From: an uncultured Chloroflexia bacterium
Lineage (GTDB): Bacteria; Chloroflexota; Chloroflexia; Thermomicrobiales; CFX8
Length of the DNA: 64,000 nucleotides
Assembly (NCBI GenBank): GCA_963729445.1
Contig: CAVSNU010000002.1
Coordinates: 1,143,925 to 1,207,924, forward strand
Reading direction: 5' to 3'
In this document: positions 463 through 39,393 of the stretch, piece after piece
Layout of the letters: each line of letters opens with the position of its first letter
How positions within the stretch are numbered: position 1 is the first letter of the stretch
The notes under the pieces: model-generated
What the model saw: the letters and a program-made list of their open reading frames with translations, nothing else
Database searches by the model: none
What the model was told of the DNA's origin: nothing
Translations under genes and position numbers: made by a program

Positions 463-3400
463 TTACTCGTAGCGCAAGGCCTCAGCAATCGGCACTGATG
501 ATGCATTGCGCGCCGGAATGATCGTCATCACGGCCGCAGACACGAGCGACAGCACCGTAAAGAAGATCACCTCGCCCCAGGGAACGGCAAACCCGCTGAT
601 CTCACCGGTATCCGAGAACGCCTCGGAGTTAATCAGGTTGTAGGAGAGGATCAGGGCGAGAACCACCCCGGTCAGCACTCCTAGTCCCGCGATCACCAGT
701 GATTCGATGAGGAACGACGCCGCCACCATATTGCGTTTGAAGCCAATTGCCCGCAACATTCCGATCTGCTGCCGGCGCTCAACCACCGCACGGAACGAGA
801 TCACCCCCAGCGCGGCGATGCCGACCAGCAAGCCGAGTCCCATGAAGCCCTGAATCAGCTGCAGGAAGCCCTGGTTGGCGCTCGCCAGCTCCTCCAGCTG
901 TGCCTGGGTCGACTCGGCCACGACACCGCGGTCGAACAGCGCCTGCTCAATCGACTTGGCAATCTCCTCGCTGTTGTCCTTCTGCTCCGGGGCGACCTTC
1001 ACGAAGAGCGTCTCCTCATCCGCCGCGTGGAAGATATCGACCAGGGATTGTTGGTTCAGGTAGACGCCGAAGGCCATACTGACTTTGCTATCGATGACGC
1101 CGATCACCGTCACCGTGCGTGTCTCACCGGTGCCCGGATCACGGACCTCGATATCGATGGGCGTCATCGGCACAGACGACACCTCTGGAACCCCCAGGAA
1201 GAACTGGTTCGGATCGTTACCAAACCCGCCCGGACCGGCGGTGAACTGGTCGACCACGGCCAGGTTCGGATCCGATGCCAGTGCCTGCCAGACCTCTTCC
1301 GTGCTGTCGTAGCCCACTGCGACATTGACGAGGGGCATCTCGGTATTGGTTGCGAATTCCTGATCGACGCCGTTCACGAACATGCGCTTCCACTCGGCGT
1401 CGGGAGCGTCTGTTCTCCGGATCTGTGTATTGCCGAACGTGATAGCCTGCACCCGGCCGACGGCCGTCACATCGCTGAGATCCGTCTCACTTCCAACCTC
1501 TTCGCGCAGATCCGCAATTGGATTGGCCGGGCTGGTCTCCACCGCAATATCCCAGCCACCGGTCGCTTCCTCGCTCGTGAAGAGATTCGCAAAGTTGGCG
1601 TTGATCGTGCCCATCACAACGAGAGAGAAGATGATGAGCGCAAACATCGCCAGCGTCATCCCGGTCTTGGCTTTTGAAGCCAGCGGGTAGGCCACCGCCA
1701 TTTTGACCGCCGGCACCCAGCGGGAGAATGCCTTGCCGAAGAGCGAGGAGATCCAGACGATGACATCGGCGTTCCACATGATCAACAGGGTTGCGTAGGT
1801 GACCATCATGATGCCTGAGACGAAGAACATCTCAAAGTCACCCGTAATCTCATCCGGATAGAGCCAATCGAATGTCCCCTCGGGCGCGAGCCAGTAGAAG
1901 AGCACGATGGCCGAGATGATGGTAAAGAGCGGGCGCTTTGGAAGCCAGCGCTGCAGCAGCAACATTAGGCCGAAGCCGAGCAACGAGATGCCCATTGAGA
2001 AGAAAAAGAGACTCCAGCGCCCGCCCTGCGCACCTTGCAGCATCATGAGCAAACCGACTGGCGTGAGCAACGGTCCCCAGAGACGGTAGTAGCCGATCAG
2101 ACCAAAGACGTATTTCCAGAAAGCGATCGGCCTCAAGTTACGCCAGCGCCAGCGTGGCCGCTTCCGGCCGCTGTCGCCATGATCCGGCAGGTCGCGGATG
2201 GCCTCCACGATGTTGAGCCGTGCCGCTCGCACTGAGGCAAAGATAATCGTGACAAAGGTGACCGCCACGCCCAGCGAATAGGCAACGGCCATCGAGCGAA
2301 ACGTGAACGTCGGCTTGATATCGAAACCTTCTCCGAGCAGGTCGCCCATGAAGATCACCATAATGGACGCAACGCCCACGCCGAGCACCGCGCCGATCAG
2401 CGCCGCGCCGAGGTCGTACGCCGTCCCTTCCGCCAGGAACTGCTGCACCAGGTGGCGCTGCTTCATGCCCACGGCACGCGCCATACCCATTTCTGCGCGT
2501 CGCTCAGCGGCCAGCATCATAAAGATCAGGAAGATCAAGAGAATACCGGCAGCCACCGAGAACATGCCCAGCACAATGAACAGACTCATCAGCAGACTCG
2601 CCAGAAAGCCCGCGTCCGCGATAGCACGCTGCTTGATGTCAGCAACACCGAGTTGCTGGCCTTCGAGCGCACTCTCAAGCGTTGCCACCACGGCGTCGGA
2701 CCGCTCGACACCGCTCTGAACGTCACCAACGTTGCTCACGGCGATGAACCGTGCCTGGCCCTCGAGCCCGGTCAGGTTCTGAACCCACTCGATGGGCATC
2801 GCCAGACCGTTGCTCTCGGGCGGGCCGTTGGTAACGAAGTTGGTGCCGGTCAAAAGACCATTCTGGGAGATCGCGCCGACCGTGAGGTCATGCGGTTCAT
2901 TCTGATAGAAGATCGTGATCTGGCTGCCAACATCGGCGTTGATCCGCTCTGCAAGGGATTCTGAGATGATCGCCGTGTCTCCGCTGAGAGGATCGTCAAT
3001 CACGTCTCCGCCCGGGTCCCGGAGTCCACCAAAGCCCTCTAGCCGGCTGGTGTCAATGCCGGACAGAATGACCGACGGCTGGTTCAGTCGCTCGGCGGTA
3101 TTGACCACCGGTACCTCAACCGTGAGTATGGGCATGAACCCTTGAATATCCGGATCATTTTGCAGCTGGGTCTCAAGGTCATCCACGATGCTGACCGGGA
3201 TCGGCTCGTTGTTGACCGAGGTTGTGCCTCGATCGTCGGATTGACCGACAAACGAGATGACCTCATCGACTTCACCGAGCGACTCATAGCTTGACGTCGT
3301 GATGAAGCTGTCGATCGTGTCGCCCGTGGTGAGCGCCGCAGAGATAATCAGGGTTGCCAGCATGAGGCCAACCATGATCAGGATCGACTGGGTCTTGCGA

Positions 3401-3540
3401 CGAGGAATGTTCCGCAGCGCCATCTTGAATACGACCCGGTTGCGCCAGGCGATATAACCGACTGAGAGCAAACACAGGCCAACAATCACAAGCAACACGT
3501 AGAGGATGCTCATGATCGAGATCCCAAAGATGTTATCCAT
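463..3540 (-). CDS. ABC transporter permease, FtsX/MacB-like with two FtsX domains (1025 aa)
   Basis: Intact 1025-aa ORF. Two FtsX-type 4-TM modules are present (..AERRAEMGMARAVGMKQRHL.. and ..VERRQQIGMLRAIGFKRNMV..) with large extracytoplasmic domains. An ABC ATPase lies immediately upstream. Confidence 0.85.
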   Translation of the reverse strand: MDNIFGISIMSILYVLLVIVGLCLLSVGYIAWRNRVVFKMALRNIPRRKTQSILIMVGLMLATLIISAALTTGDTIDSFITTSSYESLGEVDEVISFVGQSDDRGTTSVNNEPIPVSIVDDLETQLQNDPDIQGFMPILTVEVPVVNTAERLNQPSVILSGIDTSRLEGFGGLRDPGGDVIDDPLSGDTAIISESLAERINADVGSQITIFYQNEPHDLTVGAISQNGLLTGTNFVTNGPPESNGLAMPIEWVQNLTGLEGQARFIAVSNVGDVQSGVERSDAVVATLESALEGQQLGVADIKQRAIADAGFLASLLMSLFIVLGMFSVAAGILLIFLIFMMLAAERRAEMGMARAVGMKQRHLVQQFLAEGTAYDLGAALIGAVLGVGVASIMVIFMGDLLGEGFDIKPTFTFRSMAVAYSLGVAVTFVTIIFASVRAARLNIVEAIRDLPDHGDSGRKRPRWRWRNLRPIAFWKYVFGLIGYYRLWGPLLTPVGLLMMLQGAQGGRWSLFFFSMGISLLGFGLMLLLQRWLPKRPLFTIISAIVLFYWLAPEGTFDWLYPDEITGDFEMFFVSGIMMVTYATLLIMWNADVIVWISSLFGKAFSRWVPAVKMAVAYPLASKAKTGMTLAMFALIIFSLVVMGTINANFANLFTSEEATGGWDIAVETSPANPIADLREEVGSETDLSDVTAVGRVQAITFGNTQIRRTDAPDAEWKRMFVNGVDQEFATNTEMPLVNVAVGYDSTEEVWQALASDPNLAVVDQFTAGPGGFGNDPNQFFLGVPEVSSVPMTPIDIEVRDPGTGETRTVTVIGVIDSKVSMAFGVYLNQQSLVDIFHAADEETLFVKVAPEQKDNSEEIAKSIEQALFDRGVVAESTQAQLEELASANQGFLQLIQGFMGLGLLVGIAALGVISFRAVVERRQQIGMLRAIGFKRNMVAASFLIESLVIAGLGVLTGVVLALILSYNLINSEAFSDTGEISGFAVPWGEVIFFTVLSLVSAAVMTIIPARNASSVPIAEALRYE

Positions 3541-3635
3541 CGCTCGGGGTTACTCCTTTTAATGGATCGCGAGTGGGCAAAGCATCAGCATCGCGTGTCA
3601 TTTGCCCCCGGCCACCGACGAGAATGGCGCCTGGC

Positions 3636-4385
3636 TTAGTGCGCCGGGTCGTTACTCGTCTTCTCGTCTGACACAATGACGCCATCCTTCATACGGATGA
3701 TTCGACTGGTCATCGCGGCAATCCTCGGGTCGTGGGTCACAATGACGAACGACTGCTGGTTACGGCGGTTGAGATCGACCATCAGGCCCATGACTTCGTC
3801 GGCGGTCTCTGAGTCCAGGTCACCGGTAGGTTCGTCGGCCCAGACGATGGCAGGCTCGTTGACGAGCGCCCGCGCGATCGTGACCCGCTGGCGCTGTCCA
3901 CCGGACAGCTCAGCCGGCTTGTGGGTGGACCAATCGCTCAAGCCGACCTGCTCCAGGCCCTTCAACGCCTGCTGACGCGCCTGCTTCGGGTTGACGCCGC
4001 TCACGACCAGGGGCAGCTCGACGTTCTCGACGGCCGAGAGCACCGGCAGCAGGTTATAGAACTGGAAGATAAACCCCATGTTCTTCGCACGATACTCGGT
4101 GCGGTCATTGTCTGAGAGGGAGGCGAGATCGTTGCCCCCGATTTTGATGATGCCGCTGGCAATCGTGTCCAGGCCGGACAGGCAGTTGAGCAGGGTTGTC
4201 TTTCCACAGCCCGACGGCCCCATGATGGCGACCATTTCACCGCGCCCAACGTGCAGGCTGACGCCGCGCAGGGCGTTGACACGGATTTTTCCAGTGTCAT
4301 AGGTCTTGACAACGTCAATCGCTTCGATTGCTGATTGGGTCAATTGGTCGCGCTTGGCCGTTGCTTGAGAAACGGACACGGACAT
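3636..4385 (-). CDS. ABC transporter ATP-binding protein (MacB/LolD-like)
   Basis: Walker [10 protein letters not shown], signature [15 protein letters not shown] and Walker [13 protein letters not shown]. Confidence 0.9.
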
Positions 4386-4589
4386 CGTGAAACCACCTTC
4401 TTCTATGCGTCGATCGTCACTGACCGGGCGTTTATCCCCGACAGTCTTCCCTGACTGGTCGGCGGCACGAGACAGGTCCCCAGCTTGCTATCTTCCTGCC
4501 TGAAACCGGATGCGATTGGTAAGTAAATCATAGAAGTCGAACGGTTGTTTGGTTAGTAGATGACGATTTATTAACCCCATACAAGGCGG

Positions 4590-4605
4590 TGTTTCACGTG
4601 AAACA
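4590..4605. other. parS: parS centromere-like site, perfect consensus TGTTTCACGTGAAACA
   Basis: Exact 16-bp palindrome read at 4590-4605, in the intergenic region between the ABC ATPase start and the PRC-barrel gene end. Confidence 0.75.
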
Positions 4606-4743
4606 CAGAGGCGCGCCGGGGTGACCACCGGAGATCGTTCCGGAGGTCACGGAGACCGGTGAAGATGCGCTTGGGCTATCTGTCGCACCGGTGCAGCGGC
4701 GTCACTCCTGCCTCAGGATGACGTCCAGGTATTCTCTCTCGCG

Positions 4744-5232
4744 CTACTCGCCCCGCGTGTCGATGCGTGGATTGGCGTGTGGCTGATGCGGATCGTCGTC
4801 AAACTGTTCCGGGCGCATCGAGTGGGTTTCTCCCGGCCGTTCCGTGAGCGGATCACGCACAGCCGGCGGTTTGGTCCAGTGATAGGGGAGGTTCCAGTAG
4901 CCGGCCAGCGCCGTCTCGTACTCCTCGCTGAACGGCACCGACGGATCGTGTTCAGGGGCGTCGTGCAGTTCCTCTTTAGCAGCATCCACGACAATGGGGT
5001 TGTTGGTTACCTGATCCCAGCGCAGCGGCGCGACCAGATACGTGCGACCCAGGCCAAGGAACCCGTCTGTTTCGAGTTCCAGGAAGCAATTCTGGGTGTG
5101 AAACTGGTCGATCAACAGATCAACGATGTGACCGAGCTTCTCGCCATCGCGGTCAACGACCTCGCGCCCTTGTAGACCCTCAATCTCCCGCGGTAGCGCA
5201 GTCTGCGCCTGGCTCGCTCGAATGTACTGCAT
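4744..5232 (-). CDS. PRC-barrel domain protein
   Basis: The N-terminal half (GREVVDRDGEKLGHIVDLLIDQ...YLVAPL) is PRC-barrel-like. The start is chosen at the internal ATG 5232, preceded by GAAGGGGGA; the ORF extends to 5289. Confidence 0.6.
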   Translation of the reverse strand: MQYIRASQAQTALPREIEGLQGREVVDRDGEKLGHIVDLLIDQFHTQNCFLELETDGFLGLGRTYLVAPLRWDQVTNNPIVVDAAKEELHDAPEHDPSVPFSEEYETALAGYWNLPYHWTKPPAVRDPLTERPGETHSMRPEQFDDDPHQPHANPRIDTRGE

Positions 5233-5305
5233 GCTTCCCCCTTCGGACAGGTGCACTGGTACAGCAGGGTTTATTCCACTATACGCCAACCGAGGGAAGC
5301 TACTA

Positions 5306-6358
5306 CTATTCGATCGCTTCTTCGCGCTGAATCTCGCGCCAGGAGAGACTCTCGCGCCACCAGAAGAAGAACCCCAGCATCGTTACCGGGAAGTAGAGCG
5401 CGGCGTGCGTGACCACGGCGTAGGAGAGCGCCGTCTCGCGCTGGATATCAAGTGCGCCGGCCAGCACCAGTACGACACCAGCCTCGAAGGGTCCGACATA
5501 GCCCGGTGAGGAGGGGATGAGCGTCGCCAGGTTCGCGACCGCCGTGACCATGAGAATGGCAGAGGGCGACAGGTTCAGGTCGAACCCCTCGGCGATCAGG
5601 TAATACGTCGACGCTTCGAGCGACCAGGCCAGTACCGATGCAGCCGCCACGATGGCCAGGTCCTGACGCCGGCGCAAGATCCCGAGCCCCTCAATAAATG
5701 AGTGCGCCATGTGTTCCACCCGCGAACCAACGCGATCAGGCAGGAACCCGACTGCCAGCGACAGCAGGCGGACCCGGATATCAGCTGCAAATACCATGAA
5801 GAAGAGCACGAGCGAACCCACCACAAACAGCCCGGTCGCGACGAGGAAGAGGTTGCGCAGATCGGTTGTGAGGGCGATCGAGAGCGAGGCGATCAGCATA
5901 AACAGCACCATCGTCAGGCCGTCGAACACGCGCTCGACGGCGATGGTCGCCAATGAACCCGTCTTGCGCACGTTGAATCGGGCCGAGAGCGCGTAGGAGC
6001 GCACGACCTCCCCGGCGCGCAGCGGCAGGACGTTGTTGGCCATGTAACCAATGACAACCACCGGGAACAGCTTCTTCGGCGGAATCGTCTGGATTGGCCG
6101 TAGGAGATAGGCCCAGCGCACCGCCCGCACGCCGACGCCGGCAAAATAGGCCGCCAGAGCCGGTAGAAGCCAACGATAGTTCGCGCTGCGCAGCGATTCA
6201 GCGATGAGGTTGAAATCCTGACCTCGCACGGCGAAGTAGATGAAGATCAGGCTGATGCCAAAGCCGATCCACACCCGCCACGACGACCGCATGGTCACGA
6301 TTACCCCCAGACGTCTGCGGAGTCTCTGGCTCTGGTCTACGGTCAAGATCCTCACCAA
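5306..6358 (-). CDS. UPF0104 / lysylphosphatidylglycerol-synthase-TM-region-like membrane protein
   Basis: 350-aa polytopic ORF with a conserved-looking RAVRWAYLL...NNVLPLRAGEVVR segment typical of flippase-like UPF0104 proteins. The start is uncertain (alternative M at 6292). Confidence 0.6.
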   Translation of the reverse strand: MVRILTVDQSQRLRRRLGVIVTMRSSWRVWIGFGISLIFIYFAVRGQDFNLIAESLRSANYRWLLPALAAYFAGVGVRAVRWAYLLRPIQTIPPKKLFPVVVIGYMANNVLPLRAGEVVRSYALSARFNVRKTGSLATIAVERVFDGLTMVLFMLIASLSIALTTDLRNLFLVATGLFVVGSLVLFFMVFAADIRVRLLSLAVGFLPDRVGSRVEHMAHSFIEGLGILRRRQDLAIVAAASVLAWSLEASTYYLIAEGFDLNLSPSAILMVTAVANLATLIPSSPGYVGPFEAGVVLVLAGALDIQRETALSYAVVTHAALYFPVTMLGFFFWWRESLSWREIQREEAIE

Positions 6359-6513
6359 CCCGACACTACCCTGTTACCTGGCACACAGCGCGAAAGGATA
6401 CCACCAGCCTTTCGCCCCCAACCCGGCCGGCAACCTCTTTCGTCAACCGGCGGCTAGTGGTACTCTGCTCGGTAGCTGTACAAGAGAATCGATGCGACAC
6501 ACAAGGAGCAAAC

Positions 6514-8843
6514 ATGGTTTACCGCGCGATGATGGGCGCCCCGGTGCGGCGCAAAGAGGACCCGCGTCTCATCACCGGCTCGTCGATGTACGTCGGCGAT
6601 CTGAAACTGCCCGGCATGCTGCATGCCATCTTCCTGCGTTCCCCGTTCGCCCACGCGCGCATCAACGGCATCCACACCGAGGCCGCGATAGTCCGCACCG
6701 GGCGTTGTCGCCGTCTACACCAACGAAGAGCTGCGTCAATTCTGCGGCCCGATGCCGGGCGGCAGCGGCGGCGAGGGCGAGGCCGAGTCGGACGACATCG
6801 TCACCCCGACGCAGGAGCCGCTCGCGTCTGACAAAGTACGCTGGGCCGGCCAGGCGGTTGCCGTTGTCCTGGCCGAAAACGAGCAGCTTGGCCGCGACGC
6901 CGCAGACCTGATCGAGGTGGACTGGGAAGAGCTGCCGGCCGTCGTTGACCCACTGCAGGCCATGCAAGACGGTGCCCCGCTGATCTGGGAGCAGGTCAAG
7001 AACAACATCGGACTGGAGCACAGCCGCACGAGCGGCGATGTCGAGGGTGCGTTCGCGAGCGCCGACGTCACCATCTCCGAGCGCATCATCTCCCAGCGAC
7101 TGGTGCCGCTGGCGATGGAGGGGCGCGCCGTCGCGGCATCGCCGGACCCGCTCACCGGTGGGCTGACCGTCTGGGTCTCGACCCAGGGTCCCCACGGCTG
7201 GCGCAACGCCGCCGCGCCGCAACTTGGATTGAAGCAGTCGCAGCTGCGGGTGATCGCGCCGGAGGTCGGCGGCGGATTCGGCAGCAAGTTCGGCGTCTAC
7301 CACGAGGAATTGATCGTCGCGGCCATCGCGAAGCATCTGAAGCGCCCGGTGCGATGGGTCGAGACGCGCTCCGAGAACTTCCTGGCGACCAACCACGGCC
7401 GCGACCAGATCGCCGACATCGAGCTGGCCGCGACAAAGGACGGCAAGATCACCGGCTTGCGACTGCAGGTCATTCAGGACGGCGGAGCCTATCCGAAAGG
7501 CGCTGGGGCTGCCGTATCTGCACCGCGACCATGGCCGTCGGCTGCTACGACATCCCGGCCGTTGATCTCGGCATCAAGGCCGTCTACACCAACACGATGG
7601 CGAACGGCGCCTACCGTGGCGCCGGCCGGCCGGAAGCCGCCTATTACATCGAGCGCGCGATCGACATGCTGGCCAACAAGCTGGGCAATGGACCCGGCAG
7701 AGCTCCGCAGGCTCAACTTCATCGAGCCCGAGGCGTTCCCCGTTACAACCGCCACCGGCGAGAAATACGACACCGGCGAGTACGCGAAGGCGCTTGACAA
7801 GGCGCTCGAAGTCTCCGGCTACGCAGCAGCTGCGCAAGGAGCAGGAGGAAGCCCGCAAGGCAGGGCAAGCTCTACGGGTATCGGCATGGCTCCTACGTCG
7901 AGATCTGCGGCTTCGGCCCGTGGGAGAGCAGCACCGTCAAGAGTCGAGCCGGGCGGCGCGGTCAGCGTCTACACCGGCATCTCGCCGCACGGCCAGGGCC
8001 AGGAGACGACCTTCGCCCAGATCGTGGCCGACAAGATCGGCGCGGACTTCGACGACATCGTCGTCCACCACGGCGACACCGACAACACCGCGCAGGGCAA
8101 CGGCACCGGCGGCAGCCGCGGGCTGGTCGTCGGCGGCGGCGCGCTGCTCCTCTCCCTTGCCAAGATCCGCGAGAAGGCCGACAACATCGCCGCGCACCTG
8201 CTGGAAGTCGCCCCGGAAGACATCGAGCTGGCCGGCCAGAAGTATCCAGGTGAAGGGTACGCCTGACCGCTCGGTGACGCTGGCAGAGATCGCCGGCGCG
8301 GCCTATGGCGGCGGGCTGCCAGACGGACATCGAAGCCGGCCTGGACACGACCGAATACTTCAGCCCGGCCGACGAGACCTTCCCGTTCGGCACCCACATC
8401 GCGGTGGTGGAGATCGACCCGGAGAGCGGCACGGTCAAGCTCACCGAACTACTTCTCGATCGACGACTGCGGCAACGTCGTCAGCCCGCTGCTGCTCGCC
8501 GGCCAGGTCCACGGCGGGCTGGCGCAGGGCATCGCCCAGGCGCTCTGGGAAGAGGCCGTCTACGACGAATCCGGCCAGTTGATCACCGCGACGCTGATGG
8601 ACTACGCCATGCCAAAGGCCGAGTTCTTCCCGCCGTTCGAGCTGGACCGCACGGTCACCACGTCGCCACTCAACCCGCTCGGCGCCAAGGGCATCGGCGA
8701 GGCCGCGACGATCGGCTCGACCCCGGCCGTCGCCAACGCGGTGGTCGACGCGCTGCTCCCCGCTGGGCATCACCCACATCGACATCCCGGCCACGGCGCC
8801 GAAGGTGTGGAGCGCGATTATGCAGGCCAAGATGGACGGATAA
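6514..8843 (+). pseudogene. Xanthine dehydrogenase family / form-II CoxL-like molybdopterin-binding large subunit, copy 1, at least 12 frame changes
   Basis: AAGGAG RBS precedes ATG 6514. N-terminus MVYRAMMGAPVRRKEDPRLITG and the AYRGAGRPEAAYYIER loop are present. The homologous reading hops frames near 6694, 7502-7521, 7687, 7826, 7866, 7879, 7890, 7942, 8246, 8324, 8449 and 8756. The stop TAA at 8841-8843 is reached only after the corrections. Confidence 0.8.
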
Positions 8844-8875
8844 CGCCCACCACAATCAAACGACGCACACCAACA

Positions 8876-8897
8876 GGGCCGGCACTCATGCCGGCCC
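8876..8897 (+). terminator. GC-rich hairpin after CoxL-like copy 1
   Basis: GGGCCGGCA ctca TGCCGGCCC (9-bp stem, 4-nt loop) followed by TGTTT. It abuts the second parS. Confidence 0.5.
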
Positions 8898-8913
8898 TGT
8901 TTCACGTGAAACA
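8898..8913. other. parS: parS centromere-like site, perfect consensus TGTTTCACGTGAAACA
   Basis: Exact 16-mer read at 8898-8913, between the two CoxL-like copies. Confidence 0.75.
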
Positions 8914-8993
8914 ATCTCGCTCACCTTTCGGCGAAGTGGTGGTACTCTGGAACGTAGATAGCCAGCATCTGCAATAGCGCCGAAGGAGGGACC

Positions 8994-11317
8994 ATGGTTC
9001 GCAGTGCGATGATGGGCGCGCGAGTGCGCCGCAAGGAAGATCCCCGGCTCATCACCGGCTCATCCATCTATGTCGACGACCTGCAGCTACGAGGCATGAC
9101 TCACGCGGCCTTCTATCGGTCCCCCTTCGCGCATGCCACGATCACCAACATCGATACCTCCGCTGCCCGCGCTGCTCCCGGCGTCATCGCCGTCTATACC
9201 AACGAGGAGCTGCGCGAGTTTTGCGGCACGATGATTGACAAGGTTGGCAGCGAGGGCGTGCCTCCTGAAGAAGACCCTCCGATCCCAACACCGGAAGTGC
9301 AACCCATGGCCCAGGGGAAAGTACGCTGGGTTGGCGAGCCGGTCGTCGTTGTGCTCGCCGAGAGTGCGGCTCAAGCTCGGGATGCCGTCGAGCTCATCTC
9401 GATCGATTTTGAGGAACTGCCGGCCGCTATCAATTGCGAAGCCGCCATGGCTGACGGCGCACCGCAAATCTGGGAAGAAGTCAAGAACAACATCGGGGTA
9501 CACAAGATCCACACCACGGGCGATGTTGACGCAGCGTTCCGTGACGCAGACGTCACCATCTCGCAACGGATCATCTCACAACGGGTGATTCCGCTGGCGA
9601 TGGAGGGGCGGGCAACCACCGTCGCACCAGACCCGCTCACGGGCGGCCTCACCGCCTGGACTTCCACGCAGGCTCCGCACTGGTGGCGGAATGAGATCGC
9701 CGGCCGGATTGGACTGAGCCAGTCCAAGTTTCGGGTGATTGCCCCGGAGGTGGGCGGCGGGTTCGGCAGCAAGATCAGCTCGTACCAGGACGATCTGGTG
9801 GTCTCGGCGCTGGCCAACAAGCACAAACGCACCGTGAAGTGGATCGAAGACCGCACCGAGAACATGGTGGGCACCCACCATGGGCGCGCCCAGATCGCGG
9901 ACATCGAGCTGGCCGCCACCAACGACGGGAAGATCACCGGGATGCGGCTGCACGTCATCCAGGACGCGGGCGGATACCAGCGCGGGCTCGATCTGGTCGA
10001 ATTCACCGCGACGATGGCGTGCGGCTGCTACGCCATTCCAGCACTCATGACGGACGTCAAGGCGGTCTACACCAATACCATGGCGGTGGGCGCGTATCGT
10101 GGCGCCGGCCGGCCGGAAGCCGCCTACTACATCGAACGCGGCATCGACATCCTGGCCGCAGAAGCTCGGCAAAGATCCCGCCGAGGTACGCAAGATCAAC
10201 TTCATCGCCCCCGATCAGTTCCCCTTCACCACCGCGACCGGCGAGAAATATGACACGTGGGGAGTACGCTCGAGCGCTGGATAAAGCCCTGGACGTTTCG
10301 AACTACGCGCAGCTGCGCCAGGAGCAAGCAGAAGCACGCGAACAGGGGCGGCTCTACGGCATCGGTCATGGCCTCCTACGTCGAGATCTGTGGCTTCGGA
10401 CCGTTCGAGAGCAACGCCGTCAAGGTGGAGCCGAGCGGTGCGGTGAGCGTCTATACCGGCATCTCGCCACATGGCCAGGGCCAGGAAACGACGTTTGCGC
10501 AGATCGTGGCCGATCAGCATCGGCGCCAATTTCGATGAGGTGGTGGTTCACCACGGCGACACCGACAACACCGCGCAGGGCAACGGCACCATGGGTAGCC
10601 GCGGTCTGGTCGTTGGCGGCGGCGCATTGATGCTCTCGCTCGACAAGATCCGGGAGAAAATCAACAGGATCGCCGCCCACATGCTGGAGGTCGCAGTCGA
10701 AGACATCGAGCTCGTCAACGACAGGTACCAGGTGAAAGGTACGCCGGATCGCTCGGTCGACGCTGGCGCAGGTTGCCGAGGAAGCCTACGGCGGCAACAT
10801 CCCGAAGGGAATGGAGCCGGGACTTAACACGACCGACTACTTCGAGCCGCCCGACGAGACCTTCCCGTTCGGCACGCACGTCGTTGCCTGCGAGATCGAT
10901 CGCGACACTGGCAACGTGACGCTCCTCAAATACTTCTCGATCGACGACTGTGGCACTGTCGTCAGTCCTCTGCTGGTAGCGGGTCAGATCCACGGCGGTC
11001 TCGCCCAGGGTATTGCGCAAGCACTCTGGGAAGAGGCGGTCTACGACGAGACCGGCCAGCTCGTCACGGCGACGCTGATGGACTACGCCATGCCGAAAGC
11101 CGATTTCTTCCCGCAGTTCGTTTTGGACAGTACCGTCACCACGTCGCCGCTGAATCCGCTCGGCGCCAAGGGAATCGGTGAAGCGGCGACGATCGGCTCG
11201 ACGCCGGCCGTCGCCAACGCCGTGCTGGATGCCCTCTCGCCACTGGGCATCACCCACCTGGATATCCCGTTAATTGCGCCGAAGGTCTGGGCAGCGATCA
11301 ACACATCACCGCAATAA
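8994..11317 (+). pseudogene. Xanthine dehydrogenase family / form-II CoxL-like molybdopterin-binding large subunit, copy 2, 5 frame changes
   Basis: GAAGGAGGG RBS precedes ATG 8994. The sequence is colinear with copy 1 (MVRSAMMGARVRRKEDPRLITG ... AYRGAGRPEAAYYIER ... GEAATIGSTPAVANAV). The frame moves F3>F1>F2>F3>F1>F2 near 10160, 10258, 10367, 10518 and 10758. Confidence 0.8.
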
Positions 11318-11345
11318 CCCCTCATGAGGGCGGACTAGATATAAG

Positions 11346-11388
11346 TTTTGGCAACCGAACTTTGTCGGCCAAAGTTCGGTTGCCAAAA
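11346..11388. repeat. Perfect 18-bp inverted repeat with 7-nt loop (TTTTGGCAACCGAACTTT gtcggcc AAAGTTCGGTTGCCAAAA)
   Basis: Read directly. It lies 29 nt after the CoxL-like copy 2 stop and 77 nt before the Xre antitoxin start. It could be a terminator or an operator. Confidence 0.6.
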
Positions 11389-11464
11389 TCTGTCGTCGGG
11401 CGTATTCTTAGCGTATCGATCCTGAGTTGCCCGCTCTTCTGGCCCATAGACAGGATTAGCCACC

Positions 11465-11815
11465 ATGGTCATGATCGACATTACACCGCGTCAAGCTCTT
11501 GAGCAGCTTGAGTATGATCTCGCGCTAACGCCAGCTGACCTAGCTAATGCATTAGGCGTTTCCCGACGCACGCTTGAGAGGTGGCGATCCGGCGAGGCAT
11601 ATCCTCAGCGCGAGTCACGAGAGAAGCTGGCTGAGCTTATTGAGCTTGATGAGCATCTACGTGAGGCGTTCAAAGCAATCGAGGACGTCCGAGAATGGAT
11701 GCATACTGAAGCTCGCTACCTCGGATGGGCTACTCCGGCAGACATGGTCCGTCTCGGAAGAACGGATCGTGCAAGGGCCACGATCGAAGTTCTTGAATCC
11801 GGCATCTTCATTTAA
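11465..11815 (+). CDS. Xre-family antitoxin with C-terminal RES-toxin-binding (DUF2384/MbcA/ParS-like) domain
   Basis: HTH-like LANALGVSRRTLERWRSGEAYP and a C-terminal WMHTEARYLGWATPADMVRLGRTDRARATIEVLESGIF. It lies directly upstream of the RES gene. Confidence 0.8.
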   Translation: MVMIDITPRQALEQLEYDLALTPADLANALGVSRRTLERWRSGEAYPQRESREKLAELIELDEHLREAFKAIEDVREWMHTEARYLGWATPADMVRLGRTDRARATIEVLESGIFI

Positions 11816-11827
11816 CGACCTATCTAC

Positions 11828-12382
11828 GTGAACGCCGCCGACGCGCCGCACCCCGAAGACTTGCTTCGCAGATGCCCTATCGTCGACTGGCGCGGCACCG
11901 CTTGGCGTGCACACGGTCGAATGTACCCTGGGTTAGATCCTGGAGGGGCACGAAAGAATTCAGGTCGCTTTCATCGTGCACCCGACTGTTTTCCAGAGCA
12001 CGCTACATGGACTGCACTCTATCTCGGCCTTGCCCCCGAAATCTGCCTTGGCGAGATCCTGCGACATACACCACCGAGAATGATGTCACGTCTCAATATC
12101 TATCGGATCAGCGAAATAGATGTCGAGCTTAATGCGGTCATCGACTGCCGCGAGATCGCGGCGCTAGGAATCTGCCTCGACGCTCTCCTGAACGACCTTG
12201 ACTACACTGTTCCACAACGCATTGCCGCGGCAGCACTCGCTACAGGTGCAGAAGGCCTGCTCGTGCCATCCGCTACCCGGCTGGGGGACAACCTCGTCGT
12301 CTTCCCCGACCAGCTTCATCCTGATTCACGTCTCGAAATCGTTGGCAGCCGCGATCCGGTGCTCTATGTTGAGCGCTCGTAG
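11828..12382 (+). CDS. RES domain toxin (MbcT/ParT family)
   Basis: GTG start. R-E-S signature context: GRFHRAP, ALYLGLAPEICLGE and LLVPSATRLGDNLVVFP. It is paired with the upstream Xre/DUF2384 gene. Confidence 0.8.
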   Translation: MNAADAPHPEDLLRRCPIVDWRGTAWRAHGRMYPGLDPGGARKNSGRFHRAPDCFPEHATWTALYLGLAPEICLGEILRHTPPRMMSRLNIYRISEIDVELNAVIDCREIAALGICLDALLNDLDYTVPQRIAAAALATGAEGLLVPSATRLGDNLVVFPDQLHPDSRLEIVGSRDPVLYVERS

Positions 12383-14275: not shown

Positions 14276-17200
14276 CTACGCGCTAACCGGAGTGACCTTG
14301 GCCTCTGCGATCTTCTCGTTCAGGGCCGAAAGGTCGGTGTTTAGCAACTCGTCGAGCTCAGCAAGGGCGGTATCAACCCGGCCGGAGAGGTCCTCGAAGA
14401 GCTCCTGCGACTGCCGGTTGGGCTTGCCTTCGGCGCTGGCGACAACACCCGCCAGGCTGGCCAGCTTGGAGTTCAGCATGACCGGGAACTTCAGGCGGTC
14501 CTTGGGTCCCTTGGCGCGGGTCTGCACGATCTGGCCCTCAACTCCGGACAGCTTCTCCTTGAAGTCCCTGGCTGCGCTCTTGAACGACTCATCGTCGATG
14601 CGCTCTTCCCAGGCTTCGATCTGTTTGGTGATGGCGCGGATCTTGCCGACGCCCTCGTGGGCGGCCGAGATCTTGTCACGGATCTGCTTCTGCAGCGCGA
14701 ACTGGGCATCGAAGTCGGCCTGGGTCGATCCCACCCGCGGGTCCCCGAGGATCTGGAACGACTCGGTCAGGGTCTTGTCGCCGACTTTCAGCTGCACCTG
14801 GTACTCGCCGGGAGCGACCTTCGGGCCACCGACAAACGTCTTACTGACCTCGTCGCCCTCAATCAGGGTTGCGTCGGCAATGCGCATGTTCCAGACGAAG
14901 CGATTCGTCCCGGCCTCGGTCTTGACCCGCTTTTCCTTCTTCTTCTCGTCCTTCTGCGAGGAGAATGACTTGATCTCGTTGCCCTCCTTGTCGAGGAAGG
15001 TCAGAGTGACCTCGCCGCCCGGCTGCTCCTTGAAGGAGTAGTGCACGATCACGCCGTCCGGTGGGTTGTTCCCGGCATCGAGAAAGAAGATCTCCGTCTC
15101 ACCATCCGGGTTGGTCGTCTGTTTGTACGTCACGTTCAGACCATTCGCGGCCTTCAGGTTCTTACCCTGAATCGCCTGGTGTCCGAAGCCCTCTTTTCCT
15201 GCGAATCGCGTCGTGTCTCTGGGCTTGAAGAGGTGCACGTCCTTGCAGAGCACCTCGTCTACCATCTGCCGCAGCGGCGAGATGTCGTCCAGGATCCAGA
15301 ACGAGCGCCCGTGGGTTGCCACGACGAGATCGCTGCCGTGGATAACGAAGTCATGGATCGGCACGAGCGGCATGTTGAGCTGCAACCGTTGCCAGTTCTC
15401 GCCGTCATCGAACGAGACATAAATCCCAGTCTCGGTACCGGCGAACAGGAGTCCGCGCCGCTGGGGATCTTCCCGAATCACCCGGGTGAAATCATCCTCG
15501 GGGATGCCGTTGACGATCGTGGTCCAGGTCTTGCCGTAGTCGCTGGTCTTGAACAGGTACGGCTTGTTGTCGTGGCTCTTGTAGCGTGTGGCGGCCACGT
15601 AGGCCGTTGCAGCGTCATGCGGCGAGGCTTCGATGATGCTGATGAGCGCCCAGTCCGGCAGCTCTGGTGGATTCACGTTTTCCCAGTTCTCACCGCCGTC
15701 GCGGGTGAGGTGGAGCAGACCATCATCCGAGCCGGCCCAGATGACGCCGCCCTCAACCGGGGACTCCGCCACCGCGAAGATCGTGCCGTAGAACTCGGCC
15801 CCGGTCATGTCCTTTGTCACGGGACCACCCGACGGACCCATCGTCTCAGGATCGGCACGCGTCAGGTCGGGACTGATCGGGTCCCAGCTCTGGCCATCGT
15901 CGTTCGAGCGAAAGAGCAGGTTGCCGGCTGTATAGAGCACACCCGGCTTGTGCGGTGAGAGCAGGGTGGGCGAGGTCCACTGGAAGCGGTATCTGGTCTC
16001 GCTCGCGGCATGCCCGGAAACATTCTCCGGCCAGACGGTGATGTTCTTCTGCAACCCGGTGGACCGATCGTAGCGGGTGAGCAAGCCCTGGTAGCTGCCG
16101 GCGAACACAATATCGGGGTTGTCGGGCCGCACCGCGATGTAGCCGCTCTCACCCCCGCCGATCTCGTCCCACTCGGTGAAATTGATCGCCACCGCGTTCG
16201 ACCGGCTGGGCAGGCTCAACGTCGTGTTGTCCTGCTGGGCACCGTACACCCGGTAGGGCGTCTGGTTGTCGGTGATGACGTGATAGAACTCGGCCGTCGG
16301 CTGGTTATAAAGCGTCGACCAGGTCTCACCGCCGTTGTAGCTGACACAGGCGCCGCCGTCGTTGCCCATCATCATGCGCTCGGGATCCGCCGGGTCAAAC
16401 CAGAGATCGTGGTTGTCAACGTGCGGTGTCGAGACGACCTGGTACGTAGTGCCACCATCAACTGATTTCCAGAGCTCGAAGTTCGGCACCCAGACCGTGT
16501 CGGGGTCCTGTGGGTCGGCGGCGATGTGCATCCAGTACCAGGGGCGCTGGATCAGGTTGGCGTCGCCGGTCAGTTTCTTCCAGGTCTCGCCATAGTCTTC
16601 AGAGCGATAGACGCCAGATTCCTCGACGTGATCCACAATTGCCCAAACGCGGCCGGCCTTCGGGGCAGCGGCAAGCCCGATCTTGCCCAGCAGTCCTTCC
16701 TTGGGAAGTCCCGGGTTGCGGGTAATCTCGGTCCAGCTGTCGCCGCCGTCCTCGGTCTTGTAGATGCTGCTGTCTGGACCACCACTCTCCAGGCTGTAGG
16801 GTGTGCGATGCGCCTCCCAGAACGCGACATAAAGGATACGCGGGTTGGTCGGGTCCATCGTGATGTCGCAGACACCGGCCTTGTTGCTGCGAAACAGCAC
16901 CTTCTCCCAGCTCTGGCCGCCGTCCTGAGTGCGGTAGACGCCGCGCTCCTCGTTCCGCCCCCAGACATGCCCGAAACCACCGACGTAGGCGATGTCCGGG
17001 TTCGTGGGGTGAATCTCGATCTCGGAGATGTTCTGGGTGTCTTCCAGCCCGCAGTGCCGCCAGCTCTTGCCGGCGTCGCTGGATTTGTAGACGCCATCAC
17101 CAAGCGAGACATTGCCGCGGATGGTCGTCTCGCCCATGCCGGCGTAGATCACGTTCGGATCAGAGGGTGAAACAGCCAGCGCTCCTACTGAAGCGCGCTT

Positions 17201-17392
17201 GAAGTAACCATCCGAGACGTTCTCCCAGATCACACCCCCGTCGGTCGTCTTCCACACTCCACCACCGGTCGAGCCAAAATAGAAGACCCTGCGGTCTGAG
17301 GGATCGCCGGCAACAGCCACGACGCGGCCGCCACGATGCGGTCCGAGGAGGCGGTACTGCATTGATTTCAGCAGATCAGGGTTTACGCTCAA
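14276..17392 (-). CDS. Asp-box (BNR) repeat / sortilin-Vps10-like double beta-propeller protein, paralog 1 (1038 aa)
   Basis: About 10 SxDxGxTW-type Asp boxes (SSDAGKSW, TQDGGQSW, TEDGGDSW, SNDDGQSW, TRDGGENW, TSDYGKTW, SFDDGENW ...). TTG start after AAGGAG. No signal peptide. The C-terminal ~170 aa look helical. Confidence 0.8.
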   Translation of the reverse strand: MSVNPDLLKSMQYRLLGPHRGGRVVAVAGDPSDRRVFYFGSTGGGVWKTTDGGVIWENVSDGYFKRASVGALAVSPSDPNVIYAGMGETTIRGNVSLGDGVYKSSDAGKSWRHCGLEDTQNISEIEIHPTNPDIAYVGGFGHVWGRNEERGVYRTQDGGQSWEKVLFRSNKAGVCDITMDPTNPRILYVAFWEAHRTPYSLESGGPDSSIYKTEDGGDSWTEITRNPGLPKEGLLGKIGLAAAPKAGRVWAIVDHVEESGVYRSEDYGETWKKLTGDANLIQRPWYWMHIAADPQDPDTVWVPNFELWKSVDGGTTYQVVSTPHVDNHDLWFDPADPERMMMGNDGGACVSYNGGETWSTLYNQPTAEFYHVITDNQTPYRVYGAQQDNTTLSLPSRSNAVAINFTEWDEIGGGESGYIAVRPDNPDIVFAGSYQGLLTRYDRSTGLQKNITVWPENVSGHAASETRYRFQWTSPTLLSPHKPGVLYTAGNLLFRSNDDGQSWDPISPDLTRADPETMGPSGGPVTKDMTGAEFYGTIFAVAESPVEGGVIWAGSDDGLLHLTRDGGENWENVNPPELPDWALISIIEASPHDAATAYVAATRYKSHDNKPYLFKTSDYGKTWTTIVNGIPEDDFTRVIREDPQRRGLLFAGTETGIYVSFDDGENWQRLQLNMPLVPIHDFVIHGSDLVVATHGRSFWILDDISPLRQMVDEVLCKDVHLFKPRDTTRFAGKEGFGHQAIQGKNLKAANGLNVTYKQTTNPDGETEIFFLDAGNNPPDGVIVHYSFKEQPGGEVTLTFLDKEGNEIKSFSSQKDEKKKEKRVKTEAGTNRFVWNMRIADATLIEGDEVSKTFVGGPKVAPGEYQVQLKVGDKTLTESFQILGDPRVGSTQADFDAQFALQKQIRDKISAAHEGVGKIRAITKQIEAWEERIDDESFKSAARDFKEKLSGVEGQIVQTRAKGPKDRLKFPVMLNSKLASLAGVVASAEGKPNRQSQELFEDLSGRVDTALAELDELLNTDLSALNEKIAEAKVTPVSA

Positions 17393-17490: not shown

Positions 17491-20400
17491 CTATCCCACC
17501 GGCGCCACACCCAGGGACGCGATCTTCGTGTTGAACTTGGCCACATCGGTGTCAATCACATGCTGCAGGGCATCGCGCTGGGCGTCAACCCGCGTCGCCA
17601 GCTGTGCAAACACCTCCAGCGATCCCTGGGTTGGGCGGGCATCGGCCTCGTCGACCATGAAGGCCAGGCTGGCCAGCTTCTCCTTGAGGCGGTTCGGGAA
17701 GCTGCGTGGATCCGAAAGCTGCACCTGAATCAGCTCGTCCTCGATCATCTTGAGCTTGGCCTTCAGCGCGATGGCCATCTCATGAATCTCAGCGTGCCGC
17801 TCGTGAGAGGCTGTCTTCTGTTCCCATTCGTCAATCTGTTTGACGATCGCCCGCAGGCGGTTGAGCGTGTCATGCAGCTCGGAGACCTTGTCTCGAATCT
17901 GTACCTTGAGGTCGAACTGCGCCTGAAGATCCTCCAGGCTTACCGACAAGCGCGGGTCAGGAGCGATCTCGAATGGCTGGGTCAACGTCTGGTTGCCAAC
18001 CGTCAATTGCACACGGTACTGTCCCGGCAACGCTCGCGGGGCCAGCGCCGGACCGATGAATGCCGAGAAGAGATCGCCCTCGGTCTCCTCCTTCAGCTTG
18101 GTTGCCGTGGGGTAGCGTAGATCCCAGACAAAGCGGTTCGCGCCAGCTTCCGCCGTGGGTTTCAGCTCGCCCTTCTCTTCGGTCAGGCTGGAGTACGAGA
18201 TAATCGGGTTGCCGTGATAGTCGAGGATGTTGATCTTCAGCTCGCCCTCGGGCTTGTCTTTCAGATAGTAATGCACGAGCACACCGTTGGGTGGATTCAC
18301 ACCGGCATCGAGGTTCGTTTGCTTACTATCCTTCTGCTTGTAGGCGTAGACCAACGGGCCGGTCATCTTGTAATTGACGAAGTCCTGCGTCGGAGTGTTG
18401 CCGTAGCCCTCGTAGATCCGGAACCGGAACGCAGGCTTGGGAGCGAACAAGTGCGCCGATTTACCCGCCAGGTCAGCCTGCATCTGCCGCAATGGGGCCA
18501 GGTCGTCCAGGGCCCAGAACGAGCGGCCATGGGTAGCGGCCACGAGCTCGTGGTCTTCCATCACCAGGTCATGGATTGGCGCGACAGGTAACCCGCCACC
18601 TTCAAGACGCTGCCAATTGCCCCCGTCATCAAACGAGACATAGACGCCGGTCTCGGTGCCGGCGAACAGCAGGCCCGGACGATCGGGGTTCTCCCGGATA
18701 ACCCGGGTGAAGTCATCCTCTGGAATCCCAGCAGTGATCTCGATCCAGGTCTGCCCGTAGTCGTTGGTCTTATACAGATAGGGCCTCGTGTCATCGTGCT
18801 TGTAGCGGGTCGCGGCGACGTAGACAGTGGCCGGGTCGTGCGGCGAGACCTCGATCACGCTGATTAAGGCCCATTCCGGCAGATCCGGTGGCGTGACATT
18901 CGTCCAGCTCTTCCCGTCGTCGCGCGAAATGTGGACCAGCCCGTCATCGGTGCCAACCCAGAACACGCCCCGTTCGTGCGGGGACTCTTTGAAGGCGAAG
19001 ATCGTGCAGTAGGCTTCAGCGCCGGTATTGTCGCGAGTGATCGGACCACCCGAGGCCCCCAGCTTGCTTGGATCGTTACGAGTAAGGTCCGGACTGATCT
19101 CTTCCCAGGTCGTACCATCGTCGGTTGACCGATGGACATGGTTGGAGGCCACGTAGAGCACATTGGGGTCGTGCGGAGAGAACTCGATCGGGAAGGTCCA
19201 CTGGAAGCGGTAGCGATGTGCGCCGGCACCCTCACCCATACCGTGCAGTTCCGGCCAGACGGTGACATTACGCTTCTGGCCGGTCTTGGGGTCATAGGCG
19301 ATGAGGCGTCCGTGCCCTAACCCGCTGCCAATTGCGCCGGCGAAGATCGTGTGGGGGGCAGTGGGTTTGATCGCGATGTAGCCACTCTCACCCCCGCCCG
19401 GCTCGAACCAGTTGCGCGGCGTGATCGCACCCTCGAACGACATGCTGGCCACCGCCAGGGCAGTGTTGTCCTGCTGCGAACCGTAGACGTTATACGGCAC
19501 CTTACCGTCGGTGGTCACATGATAGAACTGCGCCGTTGGCTGGTTATAGAGTGTCGACCACGTAATGCCCCCATTGAACGAGACACAGGCCCCGCCGTCG
19601 TTGCCCTCGATGATGCGGTTGCTGTCCTGCGGGTCGATCCAGAGACCGTGGTTGTCACCGTGCGGCGTCGGAACCTCGAAGAAAGTCTTGCCGCCGTCAA
19701 TCGACTTCTTGCAGGGCATGTTCAGGACCCAGACCGTGTCTGCATCCTGCGGATCGGCGAAGATGTGCATGTAGTACCAGGCGCGGGTGCGCAGATCGCG
19801 GTCCTCGCTGAGCCGCTGCCAGGTGTCGCCGCCGTCATCCGAGCGGAAGAGCGCGCCGTCGTCGGCTTCGACCAACGCCCAGACGCGGTCCCGCTGCGCA
19901 GGAGAGACCGCCACACCGATTTTGCCGAGCACCCCCTCGGGTAGCCCCGGGTTGCGAGTGATCTCGGTCCAGGTGTCGCCGCCGTCGGTCGTCTTCCAGA
20001 GACCGGAGTCCTCGCCGCCGCTCACCAGTTGGTGCGGATAACGCTGCGCCTGCCAGATCGAGGCGTAGATGATCCTCGGGTTGTTGGGGTCCATCGAGAT
20101 GTCGTGGCTGCCAGCCTTGTCGCTCTTGTAGAGCACCTTCTCCCAGGTTTGGCCGCCGTCCTTCGAGCGATAGACACCACGCTCCTTGTTCGGACCCCAG
20201 GCGTGGCCGAGCGCCGCGACGTAGACCAGGTCCGGGTTCCTGGGATGGATGGCGATATCGCCGATGTGACGCGTGTCCTTGAGTCCAACGTTCTTCCATG
20301 TGCGACCGCCGTCGGTTGACTTGTAGACGCCATCGCCGTGCGAGACATTGCCCCGGATCGCCGTCTCACCAGTGCCGACATAGATCACGTTCGGGTCCGA

Positions 20401-20625
20401 CTCCGACACGGCGATTGCCCCGACGGCTGATGTGTTAAAGAAACCGTCCGAGATGTTCTCCCAGTAGTCGCCACCGTCAATCGTCTTCCATACGCCACCG
20501 GCGCAGGCCCCGAAATAGAAGGTAGCCTTCTCCGTCGGATGGCCGGCGACCGCCACTACTCGTCCACCCCGATGCGGGCCAATCAGCCGCCATTCAAGTG
20601 ACTGCAGGAGGCTCGATTCAACCAT
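17491..20625 (-). CDS. Asp-box (BNR) repeat / sortilin-Vps10-like double beta-propeller protein, paralog 2 (1044 aa)
   Basis: Colinear with paralogs 1 and 3 and shares the same Asp boxes. N-terminus MVESSLLQSLEWRLIGPHRGGRVVAVAG. AGGGGA RBS. Confidence 0.8.
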   Translation of the reverse strand: MVESSLLQSLEWRLIGPHRGGRVVAVAGHPTEKATFYFGACAGGVWKTIDGGDYWENISDGFFNTSAVGAIAVSESDPNVIYVGTGETAIRGNVSHGDGVYKSTDGGRTWKNVGLKDTRHIGDIAIHPRNPDLVYVAALGHAWGPNKERGVYRSKDGGQTWEKVLYKSDKAGSHDISMDPNNPRIIYASIWQAQRYPHQLVSGGEDSGLWKTTDGGDTWTEITRNPGLPEGVLGKIGVAVSPAQRDRVWALVEADDGALFRSDDGGDTWQRLSEDRDLRTRAWYYMHIFADPQDADTVWVLNMPCKKSIDGGKTFFEVPTPHGDNHGLWIDPQDSNRIIEGNDGGACVSFNGGITWSTLYNQPTAQFYHVTTDGKVPYNVYGSQQDNTALAVASMSFEGAITPRNWFEPGGGESGYIAIKPTAPHTIFAGAIGSGLGHGRLIAYDPKTGQKRNVTVWPELHGMGEGAGAHRYRFQWTFPIEFSPHDPNVLYVASNHVHRSTDDGTTWEEISPDLTRNDPSKLGASGGPITRDNTGAEAYCTIFAFKESPHERGVFWVGTDDGLVHISRDDGKSWTNVTPPDLPEWALISVIEVSPHDPATVYVAATRYKHDDTRPYLYKTNDYGQTWIEITAGIPEDDFTRVIRENPDRPGLLFAGTETGVYVSFDDGGNWQRLEGGGLPVAPIHDLVMEDHELVAATHGRSFWALDDLAPLRQMQADLAGKSAHLFAPKPAFRFRIYEGYGNTPTQDFVNYKMTGPLVYAYKQKDSKQTNLDAGVNPPNGVLVHYYLKDKPEGELKINILDYHGNPIISYSSLTEEKGELKPTAEAGANRFVWDLRYPTATKLKEETEGDLFSAFIGPALAPRALPGQYRVQLTVGNQTLTQPFEIAPDPRLSVSLEDLQAQFDLKVQIRDKVSELHDTLNRLRAIVKQIDEWEQKTASHERHAEIHEMAIALKAKLKMIEDELIQVQLSDPRSFPNRLKEKLASLAFMVDEADARPTQGSLEVFAQLATRVDAQRDALQHVIDTDVAKFNTKIASLGVAPVG

Positions 20626-26470: not shown

Positions 26471-26571
26471 ATTGCCCCTCCTCTGGATGCCTCCGTTGTC
26501 CGTCATACGCGAGGGCTAATGTCGCATAGATCAACGAAGGGCACAAGAGAGGGAGCGGGTAGGGGACCGGG

Positions 26572-30078: not shown

Positions 30079-30156
30079 CGCGACTAGCGAACCGTCTTCC
30101 CGGCTTCGGTAGCGTTTCCTGAGGGGCGAGCGCTTGGTACTCTGGCCTGTTTCTCG

Positions 30157-30432
30157 CTAGCGCCCCGGCCGCATCGAGACCTCATCCAAGTAGCACCACA
30201 TCCAGTCCTCCCCTCGTTCCAACGACTGGATAATGGGATGGCTGGTATCGTGGAAATGCCTGGTGGCGTGTTTGTTTTTCGAAGCGTCGCAGCAGCCGAC
30301 ATGGCCGCAGATCAGGCAGAGTCGCAGGTGGACCCAGGTGTCGCCAATCTTCAAGCAATCTTCACAGCCCTGCGCGCTGGGGGTGACATCGCGAATCTGA
30401 TCCAGATGGGTGCACTGCTGTCGCTGAGCCAT
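30157..30432 (-). CDS. UBP-type zinc-finger domain protein (about 91 aa)
   Basis: CTHLDQI...CEDCLKIGDTWVHLRLCLICGHVGCCDASKNKHATRHFHDTSHP. ATG 30432 is preceded by GGAAAGGA; the ORF extends to 30573. Confidence 0.7.
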   Translation of the reverse strand: MAQRQQCTHLDQIRDVTPSAQGCEDCLKIGDTWVHLRLCLICGHVGCCDASKNKHATRHFHDTSHPIIQSLERGEDWMWCYLDEVSMRPGR

Positions 30433-30728
30433 GCTTCGTGTCCTTTCCGTAGGCCCATGAACCTGCTGGCGGATAGATTGCGGGGCGTGAACGGCTCCAT
30501 CCGGCACAATTTGCCGCGATGGCAGCGAAGACATCATCAACATCGAACATGCGCTTGAGCTCAGGCTCGGCACGATCTCGATGAACGCTCAGTAGTTACG
30601 AAGTGCAACCTTAAGCTGCAAGAACTGGCTCGACGATCGTCTCAGGCCAAACCTCGGACGCGACGAAGGACATACTCCGGCATCTCCCGTTCATGGGAGC
30701 TCTTTGAGCTTACCGGGTGGTCGAAGCA

Positions 30729-39377: not shown

Positions 39378-39393
39378 TTTCCTAATCTCCCTA

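Follow-up and report, generated by a model that had tools for sequence, protein, structure and literature searches.

A pair of predicted parS sites and a candidate origin of replication in a 64-kb stretch of a Thermomicrobiales genome

The DNA considered here (hereafter the window) is a stretch of 64,000 nucleotides from an uncultured member of the Thermomicrobiales (Chloroflexota), taken from a contig of 1,279,973 bp. Near its left end are two identical copies of a 16-bp palindrome, TGTTTCACGTGAAACA, spaced 4.3 kb apart, and toward its right end is an intergenic element with the appearance of an origin of replication. We consider it likely, at a probability of roughly 85%, that the two palindromes are genuine chromosomal parS sites, bound by ParB, in the origin-proximal domain of the chromosome of a soil Thermomicrobiales bacterium. 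The features on which this interpretation depends are collected in Table 1.

The two palindromes and their setting

Both palindromes agree with the palindromic consensus tGTTNCACGTGAAACa at 16 of 16 positions, and at the first site the symmetry reaches 18 bp (4589-4606). The consensus published for chromosomal parS sites, which occur on single and primary chromosomes and mostly in the ori domain, is "mainly TGTTNCACGTGAAACA" (PMC7022226). We found no further match to TGTTTCACGTGAAACA with three or fewer mismatches on either strand of the window, and relaxing the scan to four mismatches added only a half-site at 22128. The base composition (about 60% GC) would lead one to expect approximately 5e-6 exact copies of a 16-mer per 64 kb. 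In 100 dinucleotide-preserving shuffles of the window, the mean number of matches at three or fewer mismatches was 0.09, and none of the shuffles contained two. We also looked for similarity between the flanks of the two sites, as a sign of a mobile element or repeat, and found none. An initial annotation, made from the letters of this stretch, had reported two exact 16-mers at these positions, equated them with the canonical ParB/Spo0J site, judged a perfect copy to be beyond chance in 64 kb and placed both copies between genes. It is borne out on each of these points, the last by the map of open reading frames (ORFs) and the distances to the flanking genes.

Site 1 is 138 bp past the stop codon of the PRC-barrel gene and 205 bp ahead of the ATG of the ABC ATPase gene, while site 2 is 54 bp past the stop codon of copy A of a CoxL-like gene and 80 bp ahead of the ATG of copy B. 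There is a hairpin beside each site, and the 3' arm of the one following copy A runs into site 2, covering its first 4 nt. The same annotation had described site 2 as abutting a terminator hairpin; the hairpin is there, overlapping the site by those 4 nt, with the nuance that neither this hairpin nor the one near site 1 has a T-run and that the terminator scan called neither.

Table 1. Positions of the predicted parS sites, the candidate origin and the neighboring features in the window
Feature	Position	Strand	Remarks
Predicted parS site 1	4590-4605	.	exact 16-bp consensus TGTTTCACGTGAAACA
Predicted parS site 2	8898-8913	.	exact 16-bp consensus TGTTTCACGTGAAACA
MacB/FtsX permease (463-3540) and ABC ATPase (3636-4385) operon	463-4385	-	downstream of site 1; syntenic in L047 and L001
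PRC-barrel (4744-5289) and LPG_synthase_TM (5306-6358) genes	4744-6358	-	between the two parS sites; Pfam
CoxL-like gene (molybdopterin-binding large subunit), copy A	6502-8843	+	left flank of site 2; out of frame at about 11 places
CoxL-like gene, copy B	8994-11317	+	right flank of site 2; 5 single-base insertions; not present at the corresponding place in L047
Hairpin after CoxL-like copy A	8872-8901	+	perfect 13-bp stem, arms 8872-8884 and 8889-8901
Hairpin downstream of PRC-barrel gene	4621-4650	-	12-nt arms, 92% complementary; 15 bp from site 1
Candidate DNA-unwinding element	56470-56509	.	most AT-rich 40-mer of the window, 77.5% AT; beside the inverted box pair
DnaA-box cluster	56516-56767	.	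five boxes (at most 1 mismatch each) in about 250 bp; one further box, abutting, with 2 mismatches
Abutting DnaA boxes, inverted pair	56516-56524 (2 mismatches), 56525-56533 (1 mismatch)	-	
One-mismatch DnaA boxes	56589 and 56683		
Perfect DnaA boxes TTATCCACA	56737 and 56759		22 bp apart

Occurrence in related genomes

To follow the sites into relatives, we used the PRC-barrel and LPG_synthase_TM genes as the anchor for finding orthologous loci. The resulting comparison set consists of 160 loci around LPG-synthase orthologues, drawn from genome and metagenome scans, and a few others, amounting to about 1.8 Mb of Chloroflexota DNA. The closest relatives of the LPG-synthase gene all come from metagenome-assembled genomes of Thermomicrobiales or other Chloroflexota, mostly from soil. 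Only three sites with two or fewer mismatches occur in this DNA, where by our own estimate, assuming uniform base composition, some 0.3 to 0.5 would be expected by chance, and all three are orthologous to sites in the window. As there is no other site in the whole set, the motif is not a dispersed repeat.

The closest relative, L001 (87% identity), has GGTTTCACGTGAAACG at the position of site 1, a match at 14 of 16 positions with the inner 14 bp intact. The other two sites belong to L047, in which the LPG synthase is 77% identical and the locus is syntenic at about 75% nucleotide identity, with the genes for CoxL, LPG synthase, PRC, ABC and FtsX in the same order as in the window. At the position of site 2, directly after the coxL stop codon, L047 carries two exact copies 67 bp apart. 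They bracket a hairpin, GGGCCGG...GCCGGCCC, that resembles the one at 8872-8901 in the window, and apart from the hairpin the remaining intergenic DNA at this position is unalignable. The L047 pair lies between convergent genes, a radical SAM gene with its stop codon at 3377 and coxL with its stop codon at 3472; thus these copies are not in a promoter, which argues against a role as operators. Judging by these alignments, the sites are under selection, having been kept at orthologous positions while their flanks diverged, and on the same evidence they are conserved over a short evolutionary distance and turn over at longer ones.

Two further observations concern the surroundings of the sites. 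The gene order changes at site 2, which forms a synteny breakpoint between the window (8843-8994) and L047 (2241-3480): beyond its pair of sites, L047 encodes the radical-SAM protein and NadA, and there is no CoxL copy B. Beside site 1, upstream of the ABC ATPase gene, a non-coding block at 4400-4560 is common to the window, L001 and L047 (for example CTGACTGGTCGG and GTAAGTAAATCA) and is probably the promoter or leader of the ABC/FtsX operon.

The two CoxL-like copies that enclose site 2, which share 74% nucleotide identity, had been called broken, and both are indeed out of frame, but an assembly error is an equally plausible reason. When both copies were aligned with three intact orthologues (from L047, L005 and L011), we counted approximately 11 single-base insertions and one deletion in copy A and five single-base insertions in copy B. 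These indels (16 insertions to 1 deletion) are confined to 4.8 kb, none of them is in a homopolymer, and the other long genes of the window, four ORFs longer than 1000 codons among them, are all intact. A 16:1 excess of insertions is not usual for the decay of bacterial pseudogenes, and the frameshifts may represent a local error of assembly or consensus, where paralogous genes were assembled from a metagenome, as much as real pseudogenes. In either case the parS calls are unaffected, since the sites are corroborated by L047.

A candidate origin and competing explanations

The DnaA-box cluster near the right end of the window sits in a 470-bp intergenic gap (56358-56826), and the candidate origin as a whole, with its AT-rich 40-mer, is placed at 56420-56800. 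Sequences resembling the DnaA box (9-mers with at most one mismatch) are more frequent than expected across the window as a whole, with 21 found against 5.4 expected, an excess of about fourfold that extends beyond the cluster. We compared the element with loci around orthologues of the neighboring S9 peptidase gene, and it recurs in L163 (78% identity; 3670-4040) and in L165 (69% identity; 7430-7830, on the reverse strand). The genes flanking the element differ in each of the three genomes, and the order of the shared blocks is the same: an AT-rich stretch, TGTGGATtGtGgGGATAA, TGACa..TtTGtCAC, GCGTACGTACACA, and then GTTATCCACA and TTATCCACAA separated by 13 nt. The AT-rich stretch of the window at 56470-56509 can be aligned with AT-rich DNA in L163 and, less strongly, in L165. 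Elsewhere in the 1.9 Mb scanned, we found no cluster of four or more DnaA boxes per 350 bp. By a count on the ORF map, the coding sequence to the left of the element is about 72% minus-strand and that to the right mostly plus-strand, a bias consistent with an origin. An autonomous, conserved element that combines DnaA boxes with a candidate DNA-unwinding element (DUE) is in our judgment probably oriC.

No gene for ParA, ParB or DnaA was found in the window, either by Pfam analysis of about 55 ORFs or by tblastn with Spo0J, Soj and DnaA, queries that had been validated as members of their families against Pfam as positive controls; the initial annotation was thus correct that parA and parB are missing from this stretch. 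The candidate origin likewise is not linked to dnaA, as the window encodes no DnaA homologue. In Thermomicrobium roseum, the genes dnaN, dnaA, gyrA, gyrB, Spo0J and gidA are "dispersed throughout the genome" and the origin was placed by GC skew (PMC2615216). Because these genes are dispersed in T. roseum, an element without linkage to dnaA is what would be expected, and the missing par and dnaA genes do not count against identifying the palindromes as parS. The pair of sites lies 48-52 kb from the predicted oriC, a distance below 5% of the replicon length (1.28 Mb or more), and the ori domain, home of most chromosomal parS sites, has been defined as the 20% around oriC (PMC7022226). The earlier suggestion that the sites are origin-proximal therefore agrees with the predicted origin, in that they would fall within the ori domain so defined. 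Literature searches found nothing specific on ParB or parS in Chloroflexi, Chloroflexota or T. roseum, and no experimental parS data for any member of the Chloroflexota.

Several observations weigh against the interpretation of the palindromes as parS sites of a chromosome. Site 1 is absent from L047, and relatives with 68% or less identity in the LPG synthase have neither site within 6-10 kb. Conservation is therefore confined to the two closest relatives, and with parS present in no others the test of conservation rests on few genomes. Neither the window nor any of the fetched loci contains a ParB or ParA gene, so that the cognate ParB is assumed. The oriC is itself a prediction, and GC skew is only weakly consistent with it: the slope of -10 per kb on its left becomes -2.7 per kb on its right, a change that is not significant, with 22% of equal-sized windows scoring as high. 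As a test of the origin the skew is uninformative, since the window extends just 7 kb beyond the candidate. Finally, scans of the 64 kb with Rfam and Pfam and for tRNAs turned up neither housekeeping genes nor any tRNA gene or Rfam-family RNA.

This last point also speaks for the alternative that fares best, namely that the sites are ParB centromeres of a secondary replicon, a chromid or second chromosome of about 1.28 Mb. What the window does contain is of an accessory type (transporters, CoxL-like genes, toxin-antitoxin pairs and peptidases), and the source contig is close in length to the second replicons known in the order, those of T. roseum (0.92 Mb) and Sphaerobacter thermophilus (about 1.25 Mb). 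The contig could, however, be merely a part of a chromosome, and in relatives housekeeping genes do adjoin the orthologous elements, with NadA in L047 and a riboflavin operon in L164. The candidate origin nearby is of the chromosomal DnaA-box type, whereas the region of the T. roseum megaplasmid in which GC skew places the origin has neither DnaA boxes nor parS; in the first 20 kb and last 50 kb of that megaplasmid, a search for parS, for clusters of DnaA boxes and for an annotated ParB found none of them. Neither the megaplasmid nor any other plasmid in PLSDB carries a close relative of the FtsX or S9-peptidase genes. A nucleotide search of PLSDB with positions 3500-12000 gave no match, no homologue of FtsX was found there, and the S9 peptidase had distant matches only, at less than 32% identity; from these negatives, the window does not belong to a known plasmid. 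In multipartite genomes, moreover, canonical parS sites are reported from the chromosome alone, with a single exception (bioRxiv 10.1101/264945; PMC7022226). On balance, we regard a secondary replicon as improbable.

A variant of this alternative would take the 1.28-Mb contig to be a complete second replicon that possesses both a chromosome-type DnaA-box origin and canonical parS, having arisen by fission or duplication of the chromosome and not as a plasmid-derived chromid. If true, such a replicon would break the rule by which canonical parS sites are confined to the primary chromosome, but we think this distinctly improbable. It is more likely that this is a lineage in which centromere, origin, par genes and dnaA have no linkage to one another, and in which the positions of parS turn over fast, as the gain or loss of site 1 and the duplication of site 2 in L047 would indicate.

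A quite different possibility is that the palindromes are operators, bound by an ordinary transcription factor that controls the ABC-transporter operon and CoxL copy B. Each of them is, after all, upstream of a gene start, at 205 bp and 80 bp, and site 1 is followed by the conserved non-coding block. The two downstream genes are nevertheless functionally unrelated, and identity to the parS consensus at 16 of 16 positions would have to be a coincidence that happened twice. L047 retains the ABC operon together with its upstream block and has no site there, and the copies that it does have lie between convergent 3' ends, where no promoter is expected and where copy B is missing. We consider operators very unlikely, and rejected them mainly on account of these L047 copies between convergent genes.

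That the palindromes are chance or relic sequences with no present function, such as leftovers of rearrangement or parts of hairpin terminators, might be suggested by the overlap of site 2 with a hairpin at a synteny breakpoint beside two out-of-frame genes, and by the lack of sites in more distant relatives, but with a negligible expectation in the shuffles, the exact sequence retained in L047 amid unalignable flanks at about 75% nucleotide identity, the inner 14 bp retained in L001 and the motif otherwise missing from the roughly 1.8 Mb of related DNA, this explanation is in practice excluded by the statistics and the conservation.

Some other features of the window are recorded here in their own right. 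Directly after CoxL copy B, at 11465-12382, an Xre-family antitoxin gene (Xre_MbcA_ParS_C) is followed by a gene for a RES-domain toxin, forming a type II pair. Three Sortilin-Vps10/BNR paralogues of about 1040 amino acids are encoded on the minus strand (14276-17392, 17491-20625 and 23339-26506), with a Mn-catalase gene between the second and third. At 28399-30588 there is an NhaA Na+/H+ antiporter with an N-terminal ABM (monooxygenase-like) domain, an unusual combination, and adjoining this gene is one for a small zf-UBP zinc-finger protein (30160-30588). A low-GC island at 37900-42000 (0.55, compared with about 0.60) encodes a nucleotidyltransferase-HEPN fusion (37906-38637), a DUF5131 phage-type protein (38634-39377), a GMT-like wHTH protein (39394-40551) and a repetitive acidic protein (40672-41595), and is possibly a mobile or defense island.

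Proposed role and known systems

If the two palindromes are chromosomal parS sites, their role can be proposed by homology with characterized ParABS systems. ParB dimers would bind each palindrome through their helix-turn-helix domains, and the binding of CTP would shut them into clamps that slide onto the adjoining DNA, so that the two sites, 4.3 kb apart, could nucleate a single partition complex covering the region. This complex would be moved by ParA and would load SMC, and newly replicated origin regions would in this way be pulled apart. The origin would be the DnaA-box/DUE element at 56.4-56.8 kb, unlinked to dnaA and 48-52 kb from the sites, and the genes for ParB, ParA and DnaA would be located elsewhere on the replicon, as in T. 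roseum. As a matter of speculation, the location of the sites and of the L047 pair at the 3' ends of genes, beside hairpins, may serve to lessen collisions with transcription.

A pair of parS sites is in itself a textbook feature, to be expected in most bacterial chromosomes, and nothing here challenges the current models of ParABS. Taken together with the conserved DnaA-box/DUE element, the pair may offer a sequence-based anchor for the origin region of an uncultured member of the Thermomicrobiales, an order in which the usual markers (dnaA, dnaN, parAB and gidA) are dispersed. The most useful by-product is perhaps a putative oriC signature for a clade of the Thermomicrobiales, for which related genomes can be searched. 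The comparison also points to a modest turnover of the centromere between close relatives.

Among known systems, the palindrome is identical to that of the chromosomal Spo0J/ParB parS sites of Bacillus subtilis, Thermus thermophilus, Caulobacter crescentus and Mycobacterium (tGTTNCACGTGAAACa; PMC7022226). The sites in the window also resemble the sites of those systems in occurring as several close copies, in being retained between relatives and, if the oriC candidate is right, in lying inside the ori domain. Unlike in most bacteria, where parAB and the majority of parS sites cluster at oriC, there is no par operon or dnaA near the window sites. They are also intergenic and beside hairpins, whereas most of the parS sites of B. 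subtilis are inside genes.

Noc-binding sites, of sequence ATTTCCCGGGAAAT, are likewise palindromes bound by ParB-superfamily proteins, as are P1 parS, F sopC and the site of Burkholderia chromosome II. All of these differ in sequence from the sites in the window, the last of them being gTTTATGCGCATAAAc (Table 1 of PMC7022226). As the window sites match the chromosomal consensus at 16 of 16 positions, neither the Noc-binding sites nor the centromere families of plasmids and secondary chromosomes would appear to be the best fit.

In Vibrio cholerae, the parS1 centromere of chromosome 1 is a group of three sites spread over a few kb, some 65 kb away from oriC1. The pair described here is similarly a small, tight cluster of canonical sites that would lie tens of kb from an origin, although V. 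cholerae belongs to another phylum and has a second chromosome with a distinct parS2. With its two perfect consensus copies, counted in the 64-kb window only, the arrangement is also like that of the Hyphomonas neptunium chromosome, where the whole centromere is made up of two parS sites, both of them TGTTTCACGTGAAACA (Table 1 of PMC7022226), although H. neptunium is an alphaproteobacterium with an essential ParB.

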